DNA of 64,000 bases, taken from sequence record PZ809289.1; one strand, given 5' to 3'. This DNA comes from a phage. The number at the start of each line of letters is the position of its first letter. The stretch's first letter is position 1. Positions 4,397 through 59,472 of this stretch are shown here, in pieces. The notes beneath the pieces were generated by a model. That model had not been told where the DNA came from. It ran no database searches and saw only the letters and a program-made list of their open reading frames with translations. Position numbers and translations under genes: made by a program.

Positions 4397-4425
4397 GTTT
4401 ACATCTCCTGTAGGTATGATACTAT
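4397..4425 (+). promoter_or_regulatory. Early promoter with stem-loop (PeSL-like) upstream of regB
   Basis: GTTTAC 4397-4402, TACTAT 4420-4425, CCTATCAAC box, inverted repeat ATCTCCTGTAG/CTACAGGAGAT around the SD. Confidence 0.6.
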
Positions 4426-4453
4426 AAACCTATCAACTACAGGAGATTACAAA

Positions 4454-8630: not shown

Positions 8631-9000
8631 TTTCGTACCCGGTCGAGGGTCTGAAGTGGATTCTTATATTGGTTGGCTACTGGTTTCTTTAGCCTATTTT
8701 AAGTCAGCCCATTTAGAAACCAAAAGCTATGCAAGACACAAAGCGTATGACTTCTATTATGTAGAAGTTCAAGGACCGCTGGACCAATTTAGTGAGCAAT
8801 ATCTTGGGTTCAGTGGCAAAGAATATAAAGCATCATTACCGTCTGCTTCAGACTTGCCTAAGGACCCGGTAGATTTTCTTGACGAGCTTCTTAAAGCATC
8901 TGATAAAATCTATGACACCCTTCCTAAGGCCATCCAGTCGACTTTGGACGATATCACTGGCGTCTTTTACCAGACTAAGTATTTGCTGACGTTAGAATAA
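8617..9000 (+). CDS. Hypothetical protein (127 aa)
   Basis: RBS GGTGGA; overlaps upstream ORF end. Confidence 0.5.
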   Translation: MKFNDFVPGRGSEVDSYIGWLLVSLAYFKSAHLETKSYARHKAYDFYYVEVQGPLDQFSEQYLGFSGKEYKASLPSASDLPKDPVDFLDELLKASDKIYDTLPKAIQSTLDDITGVFYQTKYLLTLE

Positions 9001-9005
9001 TCAAA

Positions 9006-9031
9006 GGTCTCACTTCGGTGGGACCTTTTTT
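9006..9031 (+). terminator. Rho-independent terminator (8-bp stem, UUCG tetraloop, U6)
   Basis: GGTCTCAC-TTCG-GTGGGACC followed by TTTTTT. Confidence 0.8.
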
Positions 9032-9040
9032 CGTTTAGGT

Positions 9041-11888: not shown

Positions 11889-12077
11889 ATGAAGGTCTTT
11901 TTATCATATGGAAGACCCCATAAAACCCGACGTTGGTATCTTGAAGCTGTCTGTAAAGAAACCGGACGTCGAGTCAATATCAAGTACGTGTGCAAACCTA
12001 CGCCTAAACAGACAAGACAATTTGTTAACTGGGCTATAAATGATATACGCTTCCATAATTTTTGGAGCGCAATTTAG
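11889..12077 (+). CDS. Hypothetical basic protein (62 aa)
   Basis: ORF between NTase gene and terminator; track start 11835 overlaps upstream gene. Confidence 0.4.
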   Translation: MKVFLSYGRPHKTRRWYLEAVCKETGRRVNIKYVCKPTPKQTRQFVNWAINDIRFHNFWSAI

Positions 12078-12098
12078 GAACCTTCGGGTTCCTTTTTT
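12077..12098 (+). terminator. Rho-independent terminator (GGAACC-UUCG-GGUUCC-U6)
   Basis: Perfect 6-bp stem, UUCG loop, T6. Confidence 0.8.
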
Positions 12099-12118
12099 GG
12101 GTTTAGTGCAAAAAAAGA

Positions 12119-13518: not shown

Positions 13519-13547
13519 GTTTACATCTCCAGTAGAAATGATACTAT
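13519..13547 (+). promoter_or_regulatory. Early promoter with stem-loop (PeSL-like)
   Basis: GTTTAC 13519-13524, TACTAT 13542-13547, CCTATCAAC, inverted repeat TCTCCAGTAG/CTACTGGAG. Confidence 0.6.
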
Positions 13548-13573
13548 AGACCTATCAACTACTGGAGGTTAAC

Positions 13574-16094: not shown

Positions 16095-16124
16095 GTTTAC
16101 ATCCAAGGATGGATGGAGTATAAT
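16095..16124 (+). promoter_or_regulatory. Early promoter-like element (GTTTAC, 18 bp, TATAAT)
   Basis: GTTTAC 16095-16100, TATAAT 16119-16124. Confidence 0.55.
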
Positions 16125-17379: not shown

Positions 17380-17602
17380 AGAATATGTAGAGGCTGCCGA
17401 TAAGGCAGTCCGCGAACTTACTCTAGCTTATTATAAAGAGCACGGTAAATTTCCGGACAGTTATTCAGTATTGAAATCTGCTTTAACTCGCTCGTATAAT
17501 AATATACTATCTGATGTGTATAATTTAAAATATGAGCACATGGAAAAATATGGAACAGAACTTGACCGTTCTGAAGCATTCAAACAAATATTAGGAATTT
17601 AA
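17366..17602 (+). CDS. Hypothetical protein (78 aa)
   Basis: [15 protein letters not shown]...; RBS GAGAAGAAA; track ORF 17183 extends upstream in same frame. Confidence 0.45.
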
Positions 17603-17603
17603 A

Positions 17604-17867
17604 ATGTTTAAAGTTTATGGTTATGATTCAAATATTCACCGTTGTGTTTTCTGTGATAATGCCAAACGACTGCTTGATGTTAAGAAACAACCTTACGAAT
17701 TCATTAACGTGATGCCGGAAAAAGGTGTATTTGATGATGAGAAGATTGCTCAACTCCTGGCTGCGCTTGGTCGCGAATCTCAAATCGGTTTGACCATGCC
17801 GCAAGTATTTGCTCCGGACGGAACTTCTATTGGTGGCTTTGACCAACTGCGAGCGTATTTCAAATGA
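17604..17867 (+). CDS. nrdC: Thioredoxin/glutaredoxin NrdC
   Basis: MFKVYGYDSNIHRCVFCDNAKRLLDVKKQPYEFINVMPEKGVFDDEKIAQLL... near-identical to T4 NrdC (87 aa). Confidence 0.9.
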   Translation: MFKVYGYDSNIHRCVFCDNAKRLLDVKKQPYEFINVMPEKGVFDDEKIAQLLAALGRESQIGLTMPQVFAPDGTSIGGFDQLRAYFK

Positions 17868-18034
17868 TTGAATTAATGTTGGTTGTTTTGTATCTTATCA
17901 TCGGTATTGGTTATGCTAAGACCCTAGCTAAATTAGATGATTCAGGTGACTTTTGTTGGTGGTTGACGTCTATGATTTGTTGGCCTTTATTTCTGGTTGG
18001 TGCTTCATTCTGGAACTTCAAATGATTGAATTAA
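17859..18034 (+). repeat. Direct repeat of 18-bp junction TTCAAATGATTGAATTAA flanking a small ORF
   Basis: Copies at 17859-17876 and 18017-18034; each supplies a stop plus overlapping ATG so both downstream ORFs begin MIEL. Confidence 0.7.
17864..18025 (+). CDS. Hypothetical small membrane protein (53 aa)
   Basis: MIELMLVVLYLIIGIGYAKTL...; ATGA coupling with nrdC; not in ORF track (<60 aa). Confidence 0.4.
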   Translation: MIELMLVVLYLIIGIGYAKTLAKLDDSGDFCWWLTSMICWPLFLVGASFWNFK

Positions 18035-18330
18035 ACGAACAAACCATTTTTCTAGGTGATGGTACCGAAGATGACCTGGAATATAAACTATACGAATATA
18101 TGGTTTGGTTGGCTAAAGCAGAAGGTATAGACTTTGCTGTAGCCCATCCATATGGCGAGAACACTGTTGTAATCGGCGGCACCGCTTACGAAGTCCAATG
18201 GCAATACGTTGGCCTTGAATCTGAAGAATTTGAAGAAGATGAACACGGTGATTGGCATCCAGTCGGTCCTTGGTACTGGGAACACGGTGAACCTGATTTT
18301 GAAGTAAGTAGTTGGTGGTGTGACCGTTAA
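18022..18330 (+). CDS. Hypothetical acidic protein (102 aa)
   Basis: MIELNEQTIFLGDG...; ATGA coupling. Confidence 0.5.
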   Translation: MIELNEQTIFLGDGTEDDLEYKLYEYMVWLAKAEGIDFAVAHPYGENTVVIGGTAYEVQWQYVGLESEEFEEDEHGDWHPVGPWYWEHGEPDFEVSSWWCDR

Positions 18331-18385
18331 GCCATGGTATGTCGCTCGGTGGGATACGATAGAACCTACCGAGCCAGAGGAACCC

Positions 18386-18415
18386 GTTTACAACGATTCC
18401 GAAATAGAGTATAAT
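18386..18415 (+). promoter_or_regulatory. Early promoter-like element (GTTTAC, 18 bp, TATAAT)
   Basis: GTTTAC 18386-18391, TATAAT 18410-18415. Confidence 0.5.
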
Positions 18416-18461
18416 GAACCTTCAAACAATGATTTAATTGATATGGAATATGGGTTTTACT

Positions 18462-18647
18462 ATGAAAACTGAACTGATTTATACTGAAAAGTTAAATGGC
18501 GGTAAAGTCTGGAAACTTCTTATTAAAGGAAGTCCTACTGATCAGTTTATGGCCACTTGTGTAGGGTTATACACCCGTCCTACTAAAAAGATGATTCGTC
18601 AATTTAAACGGTTGCATCGCTCGTTTTATAGTACATTTGAAAAATAA
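18462..18647 (+). CDS. Hypothetical protein (61 aa; alternative starts TTG 18438 or ATG 18450)
   Basis: ORF downstream of promoter; start uncertain. Confidence 0.4.
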   Translation: MKTELIYTEKLNGGKVWKLLIKGSPTDQFMATCVGLYTRPTKKMIRQFKRLHRSFYSTFEK

Positions 18648-18682
18648 TAAATACCCTTATCTAATAATGGTAAGGGTTTATT

Positions 18683-19156
18683 ATGTTGTTGACCGGCAAA
18701 TTATACAAAGAAGAAAAACAAAAACTTTATGATGCACAATGTGGTAAGTGTTTGATTTGTAAACGTGAATTAAACCCTGATGTTCAAAGTAACCACCTTG
18801 ACCACGACCATGAATTGAACGGGCCAAAAGCCGGTAAGGTTCGTGGTTTACTATGTAACCTGTGCAATGCTGCAGAAGGACAAATGAAGCATAAGTTCAA
18901 CCGTTCTGGTCTTAAAGGTCAAAACGTTGACTACCTCGAATGGTTAGAGAATTTGCTGGTCTATCTGAAAGCTGATTATACTGAAAACAATATTCATCCT
19001 AATTTCGTTCCTGATAAAACCAAAGAGTTCAGCAGGTTGGGTAAGGAAGAAATGATTGCTGAAATGCTTTCACACGGAATGACTTATAATGAATCTGCCA
19101 CTAAGAAACAAATGGTGGATTCATTCAAAAAACAACTGAGGAAATCGCTTAAATGA
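18683..19156 (+). CDS. 49: Endonuclease VII (Holliday-junction resolvase)
   Basis: MLLTGKLYKEEKQKLYDAQCGKCLICKRELNPDVQSNHLDHDHELNGPKAGKVRGLLCNLCNAAEG... near-identical to T4 gp49 (157 aa). Confidence 0.95.
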   Translation: MLLTGKLYKEEKQKLYDAQCGKCLICKRELNPDVQSNHLDHDHELNGPKAGKVRGLLCNLCNAAEGQMKHKFNRSGLKGQNVDYLEWLENLLVYLKADYTENNIHPNFVPDKTKEFSRLGKEEMIAEMLSHGMTYNESATKKQMVDSFKKQLRKSLK

Positions 19157-19278
19157 TTAATTTTTATGGCTACACATTTTATGCTTTAGCCGAATCTCTG
19201 AATGATGCGGTGCGTATTATGGGTGTTGAGTATCCTGCTCAATGGTTATTTGTTGTAACTAACATGTGGGTTCTTTAA
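19153..19278 (+). CDS. Hypothetical small protein (41 aa)
   Basis: ATGA coupling with gene 49; below track cutoff. Confidence 0.35.
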   Translation: MINFYGYTFYALAESLNDAVRIMGVEYPAQWLFVVTNMWVL

Positions 19279-19493
19279 TGAATAAATTTCGTAATGCTGT
19301 TTCTGATATCCTGGCTAATATAACATTGGTTCTGTTTATCGTATGCCTTTTAATCCTGGCTATTCCGTTTGGATTGCTGTTCATGATTATTGGTGCTCTG
19401 AGTACTGAAAAAGGTCTTGAAGGGTCCGAGTTCGACAAACGAATCCAGGCTGTTCATAGTGTTATTGCAAAAATGATGAAGGTGAAAGAATGA
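19278..19493 (+). CDS. Hypothetical membrane protein (71 aa)
   Basis: MNKFRNAVSDILANITLVLFIVCLLILAIPFGLLFMIIGAL; track start is GTG 19266. Confidence 0.5.
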   Translation: MNKFRNAVSDILANITLVLFIVCLLILAIPFGLLFMIIGALSTEKGLEGSEFDKRIQAVHSVIAKMMKVKE

Positions 19494-19786
19494 AACGTTT
19501 TGAAGAATATGTAGCTTTGAATTGGACCGCTTGGGACAAGTTTGGTGATGATTGGTACTTCCATGACTGTGACCTGAACCCTGAATTCTTTAAAGGTAAG
19601 GAAGACGACCTCAAGGACATCTATGCTCTGTCAGAGATTCATGGTATTAAACCTACTGTCTATTTCTCTTTTGATGATACCGGGTTCCTTATCCAGATTT
19701 ACGTCCCATACGGAACTAATGAAGACGAAGTTCTAAAAACTTGGGACTACCAAGGAGTTATTTCCTGTGGACCAAAAGTTAACTAA
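19490..19786 (+). CDS. Hypothetical protein (98 aa)
   Basis: ATGA coupling. Confidence 0.5.
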   Translation: MKRFEEYVALNWTAWDKFGDDWYFHDCDLNPEFFKGKEDDLKDIYALSEIHGIKPTVYFSFDDTGFLIQIYVPYGTNEDEVLKTWDYQGVISCGPKVN

Positions 19787-20085: not shown

Positions 20086-20114
20086 ATTTACTTCCTCTCC
20101 TCACGTGTTATAGT
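20086..20114 (+). promoter_or_regulatory. Early promoter variant with stem-loop (PeSL-like)
   Basis: ATTTAC 20086-20091, TATAGT 20109-20114, CCTATCAAC box; 13-bp near-perfect inverted repeat pairing spacer with SD GAGGAG. Confidence 0.5.
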
Positions 20115-20143
20115 CTATCCTATCAACACATGAGGAGAACATT

Positions 20144-53689: not shown

Positions 53690-53718
53690 GTTTACTTCTC
53701 CTCATGACATGATACTAT
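53690..53718 (+). promoter_or_regulatory. Early promoter with stem-loop (PeSL-like)
   Basis: GTTTAC 53690-53695, TACTAT 53713-53718, CCCTATCAAC; 11-bp inverted repeat TTCTCCTCATG/CATGAGGAGAA. Confidence 0.6.
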
Positions 53719-53745
53719 CTACCCTATCAACATGAGGAGAACAAA

Positions 53746-57428: not shown

Positions 57429-59241
57429 TAATAAAATTGAAATGCTTAGTATTAAAGAACACGTTATTAAACGCCCTGGAATGTACATAGGAAGTGTATC
57501 ATTCGAGGACCATGAACGTTTTCTCTTTGGCGAATTTAAAAAAATTCGTTATGTTGCGGGTGTTCTCAAATTAGTAGATGAAATCATTGATAACTCTGTC
57601 GATGAAGCCATTCGTACCAATTTTAAATTTGCAAATAAAATCTCAGTTGGTATTGATTTAAAAACTAATAAAGTTACTGTAGAAGATAATGGTCGTGGCA
57701 TTCCACAGGCTATGGTTATTACTCCTGAAGGTGAAGAAATCCCAGGACCTGTGGCTGCCTGGACCAAGACTATGGCAGGTGGTAACTTTGGCGACGATAA
57801 AGAACGAGTCACGGGTGGCCAAAACGGTGTAGGCTCAAGCTTAACAAATATTTTCTCTACATTGTTTACAGGTGTAACTTCAGATGGCAAAAATGAGCTA
57901 TCAGTAAATTGTTCTAATAACGCCGATAACGTTTCTTGGAAAACCAAAGCATCTAAAGCCAATGGAACAAAGGTTGAATTTATTCCAGATTTTACCCACT
58001 TTGAAATGTCGGCTTTTGACCAAATCTATTTAGATGTTACTTTAGACCGTTTGCAAACCTTGTCAGTGGTTTATCCCGACATAGAATTTAAATTTAATGG
58101 TAAAAAGGTTCAAGGCCAGTTTAAAAAATATGCTAAGCAGTTTGATGAAGAAGTTGTAACTCAAGAACAAGAAACATGCTCTATTGCAATCGGTCGAAGC
58201 CCTGACGGATTCCGTCATTTAACTTATGTGAACAATATTCATACTAAAAATGGTGGCCATCACATTGAATGCGTAATGGATGATATGTGTGATGAATTGA
58301 TTCCAGCTATTAAAAAGAAATATAAAATCGAAGTAACTAAGGCTCGCGTTAAAGAATGTCTAACTATGTTGATGTTTGTCCGTGGAATGAAAAACCTTCG
58401 TTTTGATTCCCAGACTAAAGAGCGTTTGACTAGCCCTTATGGCGAAATCCGTAGTCATATTCAGTTAGATACTAAAAAGTTGGCCAAAAGCATTCTGAAT
58501 TCTGAAGCAGTATTGATGCCCATTATCGAAGCTGCTTTAGCACGTAAATTAGCAGCTGAAAAGGCTGCCGAAACTAAAGCCGCTAAGAAAGCTTCTAAAG
58601 CCAAGGTCCATAAGCATATTAAAGCTAACCTATACGGCAAAGATGCTGATACAACCCTGTTCCTAACCGAAGGTGATTCCGCTATGGGTCCTTTCATTGA
58701 AGTCCGTAATAAAGACCTTCAAGGTGGCTATCCATTACGTGGTAAGGTTATGAATACCTGGGGAATGACAGCAACAGATATCATGAAGAACAAGGAACTA
58801 TTTGATATCTGTGCAATCACTGGATTGGTTATTGGTGAACCTGCAGAGAAAACTAACTATCGTAATATTGCTATTATGACTGATGCCGATGTGGATGGTA
58901 CTGGCTCGATTTATCCATCATTGCTAGCCTTCTTTAGTCAATGGCCTGAATTGTTCGAACAAGGCCGAGTACGTTTCTGTAAAACACCTGTAATTATTGC
59001 CCAGGTTGGTAAAGAACAAGAATGGTTCTATGATGTTCCTAGTTATACCAAAGCTAAGGACTCTCTACCAAAACATTCTATTCGGTATATCAAAGGACTA
59101 GGTTCTCTTGAGAAAGCTGAATACCGTCGAATGATTCAAGACCCTAAATTTGATGTGGTTCAATTACCTGAAGATTGGAAAGAACAGTTCGAAATGCTCC
59201 TTGGTAATGACCCACAACTCCGTAAGGCCTGGATGTCGTAA
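57421..59241 (+). CDS. 39: DNA topoisomerase II large subunit (GyrB-like ATPase), unsplit 39+60 form
   Basis: 606 aa; GHKL ATPase N-terminus aligning to T4 gp39, continuing without interruption through the region T4 encodes as gene 60. Confidence 0.9.
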   Translation: MIDNKIEMLSIKEHVIKRPGMYIGSVSFEDHERFLFGEFKKIRYVAGVLKLVDEIIDNSVDEAIRTNFKFANKISVGIDLKTNKVTVEDNGRGIPQAMVITPEGEEIPGPVAAWTKTMAGGNFGDDKERVTGGQNGVGSSLTNIFSTLFTGVTSDGKNELSVNCSNNADNVSWKTKASKANGTKVEFIPDFTHFEMSAFDQIYLDVTLDRLQTLSVVYPDIEFKFNGKKVQGQFKKYAKQFDEEVVTQEQETCSIAIGRSPDGFRHLTYVNNIHTKNGGHHIECVMDDMCDELIPAIKKKYKIEVTKARVKECLTMLMFVRGMKNLRFDSQTKERLTSPYGEIRSHIQLDTKKLAKSILNSEAVLMPIIEAALARKLAAEKAAETKAAKKASKAKVHKHIKANLYGKDADTTLFLTEGDSAMGPFIEVRNKDLQGGYPLRGKVMNTWGMTATDIMKNKELFDICAITGLVIGEPAEKTNYRNIAIMTDADVDGTGSIYPSLLAFFSQWPELFEQGRVRFCKTPVIIAQVGKEQEWFYDVPSYTKAKDSLPKHSIRYIKGLGSLEKAEYRRMIQDPKFDVVQLPEDWKEQFEMLLGNDPQLRKAWMS

Positions 59242-59285
59242 TAAATACGTATGGTACTAATTGGTGCCATACAAAAGGAGACTTT

Positions 59286-59447
59286 ATGAGAAAGTACTGG
59301 GTTACGCTCGTCACCGGTGAATACGGTTATATCTGGACTGATACTAGACCTCAGTTTGCAGAATACGTGACTATTACAGTCGAGACATGGGACGGCGAAG
59401 TTTACCAAACCCGCGGACAAGTCTATAAGGTCGATTCAAGTAACTAA
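59286..59447 (+). CDS. Hypothetical small protein (53 aa)
   Basis: Strong RBS AAGGAG; followed by terminator; below track cutoff. Confidence 0.45.
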   Translation: MRKYWVTLVTGEYGYIWTDTRPQFAEYVTITVETWDGEVYQTRGQVYKVDSSN

Positions 59448-59448
59448 T

Positions 59449-59468
59449 AAGGGCCTTCGGGCCCTTTT
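59449..59468 (+). terminator. Rho-independent terminator (AAGGGCC-UUCG-GGCCCUU-U4)
   Basis: 7-bp stem, UUCG loop, T-run. Confidence 0.75.
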
Positions 59469-59472
59469 CGGG

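Follow-up and report, generated by a model that had tools for sequence, protein, structure and literature searches.

A probable orthologue of the T4 gene 49 initiation-region hairpin, with its late-promoter box, in a Dhakavirus and its relatives

The stretch of phage DNA analysed here (record PZ809289.1, 64,000 nucleotides, referred to as the window) carries gene 49 in a region that shows 99.3% identity to Escherichia phage QL01 (Dhakavirus, Straboviridae) by sequence comparison. The open reading frame at 18683-19156 matches PF02945 (4.8e-20) and PF09124 (1.9e-26), the Pfam families of endonuclease VII. The genes upstream of it are tightly packed and all lie on the plus strand, and the TAA stop codon of its nearest neighbour (18645-18647) overlaps a putative late-promoter box and falls inside the lower stem of a hairpin, 5 nt to the 5' side of the upper stem. 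The plus strand reads gAAAAATAATAAATACCCTTATCTAATAATGGTAAGGGTTTATTATGTTG between 18640 and 18690, and the features of the locus are the following:

18387-18415, plus strand: sigma-70-type promoter-like site (TTTACA, 17 nt, TATAAT; 11/12 matches), a consensus match only
18462-18647, plus strand: small upstream ORF, DUF7279, 61 aa (ORF list, Pfam)
18644-18650, plus strand: 5' strand of the lower stem, AT-rich, 7 bp, AUAAUAA (RNA fold)
18646-18653, plus strand: late-promoter box AATAAATA, the A(-13) variant of TATAAATA, taken as positions -13 to -6 (motif)
18651-18652, plus strand: bulge of 2 nt (RNA fold)
18653-18661, plus strand: 5' arm of the upper stem, 9 bp, ACCCUUAUC (RNA fold, covariation)
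about 18659, plus strand: predicted late transcription start (+1), from the position of the box (PMC1524935)
18662-18668, plus strand: loop of 7 nt, UAAUAAU, variable among relatives (RNA fold)
18669-18677, plus strand: 3' arm of the upper stem, GGUAAGGGU, including the Shine-Dalgarno sequence AAGGG at 18672-18676 (RNA fold)
18678-18684, plus strand: 3' strand of the lower stem, UUAUUAU, made up of the spacer and the A and U of the gene 49 start codon (RNA fold)
18683-19156, plus strand: gene 49, recombination endonuclease VII, 157 aa (Pfam)

The original prediction had placed at the start of gene 49 a hairpin that would sequester its ribosome-binding site, and the sequence bears out every coordinate given in this proposal. 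The two halves of the inverted repeat, ACCCTTA (18653-18659) and TAAGGGT (18671-18677), are located exactly where they were said to be, the repeat ends 5 nt before the start codon (TTATT, 18678-18682, preceding ATG at 18683-18685), and the Shine-Dalgarno sequence AAGGG at 18672-18676 sits in the 3' arm. Folded as RNA, 18642-18685 forms a two-part hairpin spanning 18644-18684 on the plus strand, in which the AT-rich extension at the base, also anticipated, becomes a lower stem of 7 bp (18644-18650 with 18678-18684). The same hairpin is retained when the sequence is folded in contexts of 71 nt and 121 nt. Its minimum free energy is -15.5 kcal/mol as compared to -5.25 +/- 2.31 kcal/mol for dinucleotide shuffles (z -4.44; 0 of 200 shuffles as stable), and the locus thus possesses what characterizes the ribosome-binding-site-sequestering hairpins of T4, a stable helix with the Shine-Dalgarno sequence and/or the start codon in its 3' strand. 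By stability alone the gene 49 hairpin is not exceptional: about 0.5% of all 44-nt plus-strand segments of the window fold at -15.5 kcal/mol or lower, and 83 plus-strand clusters reach -14 kcal/mol or lower. It stands out from chance because of its position at a start site, its identity to the T4 element and the covariation in relatives. A scan of 17500-19500 against Rfam gave no match at E <= 1.

Where does late transcription begin relative to this helix? Late promoters of T4 consist of an 8-bp box at -13 to -6 (PMC1524935). The original prediction had pointed to the upstream sequence TAATAAATA (18645-18653) as being one mismatch away from a late box; the location is right, and the mismatch is the A at -13, which happens to be the commonest natural variant, found in nine of 50 listed T4 late promoters, 32 of which are perfect (PMC2988020). 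In the window, AATAAATA adjoins the 5' arm of the upper stem. With the box taken as -13 to -6, the late start should therefore fall at about 18659, within this arm, and the box appears to be placed such that late RNA loses most of the 5' strand of the helix. In one Mosigvirus record the corresponding box upstream of gene 49 carries the annotation T4-late promoter; a literature search for RNA-seq start-site mapping of T4 covering gene 49 yielded nothing usable. Counting such boxes carries no weight in itself. There are four occurrences of TATAAATA in the whole window, all on the plus strand, where 6.2 are expected, and three of AATAAATA, where 9.0 are expected, and all 100 shuffles contained at least three of the latter. 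As the boxes are if anything depleted, AATAAATA is significant not by number but by its conserved placement.

Structure predictions for the two kinds of transcript indicate a large difference in accessibility. On read-through RNAs of 121-339 nt the predicted probability of being unpaired is 0.001 for the Shine-Dalgarno sequence, in line with the predicted sequestration of the gene 49 ribosome-binding site, and about 0.24 for the AUG. In RNAs starting at 18657-18661 these values are predicted to be 0.36-0.54 for the Shine-Dalgarno sequence and 0.58-0.82 for the AUG, and the predicted cost of opening 18670-18685 is 16.1 kcal/mol on read-through RNA versus 4.4 kcal/mol on late RNA. Even in the late RNA the Shine-Dalgarno sequence is predicted to be free only about half of the time, which counts against a sequestration switch. 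As to the origin of long transcripts, sigma-70-type promoter-like sites with 11/12 matches each are present on the plus strand upstream of gene 49 at 16096, 17471 and 18387, and the last of these (18387-18415) is a candidate source of early transcripts carrying both arms of the hairpin. A consensus scan found no other terminator-like site on the plus strand upstream of 18653. Promoter-like sites on the same strand without an earlier terminator-like site make long transcripts with both arms plausible.

The element is closely matched in T4 itself. In the T4 genome (NC_000866) gene 49 occupies 46382-46855, with pin upstream and a nested product of 105 aa annotated. The T4 leader reads AATAAATACCCTTATC-TATTTAA-GGTAAGGGTTTATTATG and that of the window AATAAATACCCTTATC-TAATAAT-GGTAAGGGTTTATTATG; box, both stems and spacer are base-for-base identical, and the orthologous gene follows, while four of the seven loop bases differ. 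Gene, position and logic are shared, with the Shine-Dalgarno sequence and the AUG paired on long RNA and the late start inside the 5' arm. What differs is the gene upstream, which in T4 is pin, ending 4 nt before the box, and in the window the ORF with DUF7279, whose stop codon overlaps the box. The last 18 residues of this ORF resemble the C-terminus of T4 Pin, the Lon inhibitor (10/18 identical, E 1e-6 for the pair), suggesting that the coding sequence beside the hairpin is conserved even where the upstream gene differs. For the T4 genes e, soc, 49 and I-TevI the Shine-Dalgarno sequence and/or the AUG are described as sequestered in a helix that lowers 30S binding, and for gene e late promoters just upstream yield RNAs without the 5' strand of the helix (PMC3014915 section 29). 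The same account is given in section 12 of a second review, which refers to Barth et al., 1988 (Genetics 120:329) for gene 49 (PMC2988022). On the silencing of T4 gene 49 by a start-region hairpin on early read-through RNA, which the original prediction had invoked as precedent, the two reviews agree in these sections (PMC3014915, PMC2988022).

Is this arrangement maintained in evolution? Among 46 IMG/VR loci whose gp49 is 52-100% identical, 29 distinct leaders were obtained. All 29 have (N)ATAAATA or TAAATA directly before the 5' arm and carry the Shine-Dalgarno sequence in the 3' arm, the late box being conserved at the same position before gene 49 in all relatives; the comparison of Shine-Dalgarno and AUG placement covered the relatives other than the group with genomes of 174-180 kb, in which box and hairpin are likewise present. 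All 29 fold at -9.8 to -16.5 kcal/mol, and at -2.7 kcal/mol or weaker when folded from the predicted late start. The arm sequences themselves vary widely, pairs such as CCCTTATC/GGTAAGGG, GGTTCATC/GGTGAACC, CTCTTATC/GGTAAGAG, CCTCTATA/TATAGAGG and GAGTCAT/ATGACTC being found, and the helix is maintained by compensatory changes. In a MAFFT alignment of the 29 distinct sequences 91.3% of the cells are paired, as compared to 39-49% in slid controls, with compensatory changes at six of eight pairs and a covariation score of 0.608 versus 0.22 for shuffled alignments, a value reached by none of 500 shuffles. An alignment of 38 distinct sequences fitted to a covariance model gave similar numbers (93% of cells paired, slid controls 39-47%, compensatory changes at seven of eight pairs, covariation score 0.693 versus 0.21 shuffled). 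The covariance model of the element has a single match in the 64-kb window, at 18646-18688, and also finds leaders outside its training set (L091, L110, L113). More distant gp49 homologues likewise have box and hairpin, and in one locus, L106, the box lies in the loop and not before the 5' arm, with the same outcome. In the loci of the Aeh1 group the box is CTAAATA, which is the published late consensus of Aeh1 (PMC1524935), indicating that the box changes with the promoter specificity of the lineage.

Taken together, the element is in our estimation, with a probability of about 85%, the orthologue of the T4 gene 49 translation-initiation-region hairpin with its built-in late promoter. What is directly established is the structure with its stability and covariation, the identity of the element to that of T4, and where the box lies with respect to the stem. 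The original suggestion of a ribosome-binding-site-sequestering hairpin combined with a near-consensus late box, as in T4 gene 49, thus appears well founded, supported as it is by orthology to T4 and strong covariation. For this phage we infer an active late promoter, its exact start site, the existence of read-through transcripts and the effect on translation, and the device could be imagined to operate in the following way. Long transcripts arriving from upstream by early or middle read-through would carry both arms, and the RNA would fold. In the folded long RNA the Shine-Dalgarno sequence and part of the gene 49 AUG would be buried and 30S initiation would be poor. Late in infection, gp55-RNA polymerase would recognize AATAAATA (18646-18653) and start at about 18659. 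The resulting late RNA would be devoid of most of the 5' arm, its start region would be open, and endonuclease VII would be made at the time when DNA packaging needs it.

Could a hairpin at this position have a different purpose? Its main role might be to stop transcription of the early genes upstream, as an intrinsic (Rho-independent) terminator or an attenuator. A lenient consensus scan does pass 18653-18677 as terminator-like, with 9 pairs (4 G-C) and the tail TTATTATGTT, and the record of phage NBG2 (NC_054925.1, 42226-42273; 479-526 of locus L048) labels the orthologous hairpin as a terminator overlapping the endonuclease VII start codon, a label that an automatic tool probably assigned in error. 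With intrinsic terminators the element shares a hairpin followed by a T-rich stretch. It differs from them in the AU-rich stem and in a tail that is interrupted, coding and not conserved: the hairpin is present in many relatives where the 8 nt after it contain no more than 1-2 U (L012, L036, L042, L044, L046, L047 and the group with genomes of 174-180 kb are examples), and the U-rich tail, where present, is the coding sequence for Met-Leu-Leu. The GC-rich stem and conserved U tract of an intrinsic terminator are thus both missing in spite of the lenient scan. The window itself offers textbook examples on the plus strand for comparison (8995-9038, 12063-12106 and 59445-59470), which have GC-rich stems, TTCG loops and runs of 4-6 T, unlike the AU-rich gene 49 stem with its 7-nt loop. 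Termination would furthermore leave unexplained that the late box always adjoins the 5' arm and that the Shine-Dalgarno sequence is always in the 3' arm. Termination as the main function was rejected because the U tail is not conserved, and we consider it improbable; some pausing or partial termination at the hairpin may occur. Equally improbable is a role in RNA processing or stability, in which the helix would be cut by a nuclease or would protect the 3' end of the upstream message and would impose no block on translation. Covariation shows that the RNA helix matters and not why, and the 1988 study of T4 gene 49 by Barth and colleagues reportedly allowed for cleavage as well as sequestration. 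However, a processing element provides no reason for a Shine-Dalgarno sequence in the 3' arm in nearly every lineage, nor for a late box sitting just where late RNA loses the 5' arm.

A rather unlikely reading is a coupling gate, in which ribosomes finishing the upstream ORF melt the base of the stem, so that early translation of gene 49 would be tied to that of the upstream gene instead of being switched off. The upstream TAA (18645-18647) lies within the lower stem and ends 5 nt short of the upper one, and in nearly all relatives the upstream stop is found between a 9-nt overlap with the box and 13 nt before it. Such short distances are expected anyway in the tightly packed genomes of T4-like phages, and the distance from stop to box varies among relatives. 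Moreover, soc in the window has the same layout, and its T4 counterpart is described as not being expressed from early RNA (PMC2988022, PMC3014915), for which reason coupling is treated here as a secondary layer. Ribosomes that terminate there are expected to open the lower stem, and possibly the first pairs of the upper one, so that some coupled early translation may occur. There is finally the idea that the inverted repeat acts at the level of the DNA, by forming a cruciform or serving as a palindrome to which a protein binds (endonuclease VII itself might use it as a substrate), prompted by the fact that an inverted repeat in double-stranded DNA adjoins the gene for a cruciform-cutting enzyme. 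One pair of the helix is U.G in 23 of the 29 sequences, which corresponds to an A.C mismatch on the opposite strand, and the minus strand folds 5 kcal/mol less well (-10.3 versus -15.5 kcal/mol for the plus strand). Both observations favor a structure in the plus-strand RNA. The arms also change freely with pairing kept, arguing against a sequence-specific binding site. The cruciform was rejected on the grounds of the conserved U.G pair and the weaker minus-strand fold, and action at the DNA level is extremely improbable.

The T4-like sequestering hairpin does not bring with it all features of gene 49 in T4. In T4, codon 53 is GTG behind GGAAAGG and is annotated as an internal start. Codon 53 of the window (18839-18841) is GTT, and the arrangement of two nested proteins with an internal GUG at this codon is thus absent. 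In most relatives the codon is GTT, GTA, GTC or ATT, some close relatives of T4 having GTA, and GTG occurs among the relatives compared only in T4, L009, L036/L037, L043, L045 and L046. The site homologous to the internal Shine-Dalgarno sequence and GUG of T4 is covered in the window by a hairpin at 18805-18848 on the plus strand, inside gene 49, which at -20.9 kcal/mol is the most stable 44-nt plus-strand hairpin of the whole window. This internal hairpin has about -15 to -23 kcal/mol in many genera and only -4.9 to -7.2 kcal/mol in T4 and the phages closest to it. It may have a function of its own, or may simply follow from the conserved HDHE...KVRG codons. The GTT at codon 53 together with the strong internal hairpin makes a nested product of the T4 type unlikely here, and the loss of the internal GUG suggests that the nested gp49 product of T4 is not a general feature. 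A wider reading, to which we give even odds, is that the box and hairpin of gene 49 constitute a family-wide cis-element of the Straboviridae, that the nested 12-kDa product is peculiar to T4 and a few others, and that early gp49 synthesis is fully shut off and not diverted to a short product. On this wider reading the range of the module may comprise coliphage, Klebsiella/Enterobacter, Aeromonas (Aeh1 group) and Acinetobacter lineages.

What does this add to the existing picture? The late-switch hairpin of gene 49 is real and strongly conserved, but it is already known and ordinary, and its importance goes little beyond annotation. A Dhakavirus has retained, without alteration, the classic T4 device for delaying the synthesis of endonuclease VII, and T4-like phages at large have kept it with compensatory changes. 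Its conservation over the family, and the lack of such conservation for the internal start, add modestly to what was known. For practical purposes, hairpins of this kind should not be annotated as terminators, as is the case in at least one GenBank record, and the combined signature of box and hairpin offers a way of predicting late translational control as new T4-like genomes appear.

Among known systems, the nearest to the gene 49 element apart from its T4 counterpart are the T4 modules of soc, e and I-TevI, which share its design: TATAAATA immediately precedes the 5' arm of a helix or lies within this arm, and on read-through RNA the helix sequesters the Shine-Dalgarno sequence and/or the AUG (PMC3014915, PMC2988022). 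They differ from the gene 49 element in belonging to other genes and having unrelated stem sequences. In the soc module it is the AUG, rather than the Shine-Dalgarno sequence, that is the main paired element. A second case of the same design in the window is indeed found at 46804-46860, before a Soc-like ORF of 77 aa (46843-47076, plus strand). There, TATAAATA (46804-46811) is directly followed by CACCTGTAATTAA; this pairs with TTAATTATGGGTG, a stretch that takes in the ATG, and the fold has -13.1 kcal/mol with the 5' arm and -2.4 kcal/mol without it; the soc case of T4 is already known. At 59240-59289 on the plus strand, AATAAATA (59240-59247) is followed by a 10-bp hairpin, GTATGGTACTAATTGGTGCCATAC, and then by AAAAGGAGACTTTATG. 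Since the Shine-Dalgarno sequence lies outside the hairpin, this site does not have the sequestering design.

A promoter is combined with a stem-loop also in the PeSL (promoter-early stem-loop) cassettes of T4-type phages, which are intergenic as well (PMC2839356, PMC4122927). The window contains five palindromic cassettes of about 44 nt on the plus strand that resemble them (1407-1450, 4403-4446, 13525-13568, 20095-20138 and 53697-53740). In these the order is GTTTACA (-35-like), TCTCCTGTAG, TGATACTAT (-10-like, in the loop) and CTACAGGAGA, with an ATG 6-8 nt further on, so that a sigma-70-type promoter seems to be nested in a hairpin whose 3' arm is the Shine-Dalgarno sequence. PeSLs are repeated mobile cassettes with early promoters of the sigma-70 type, whereas the gene 49 element has a late box, is present in a single copy in the window and is orthologous across genera.
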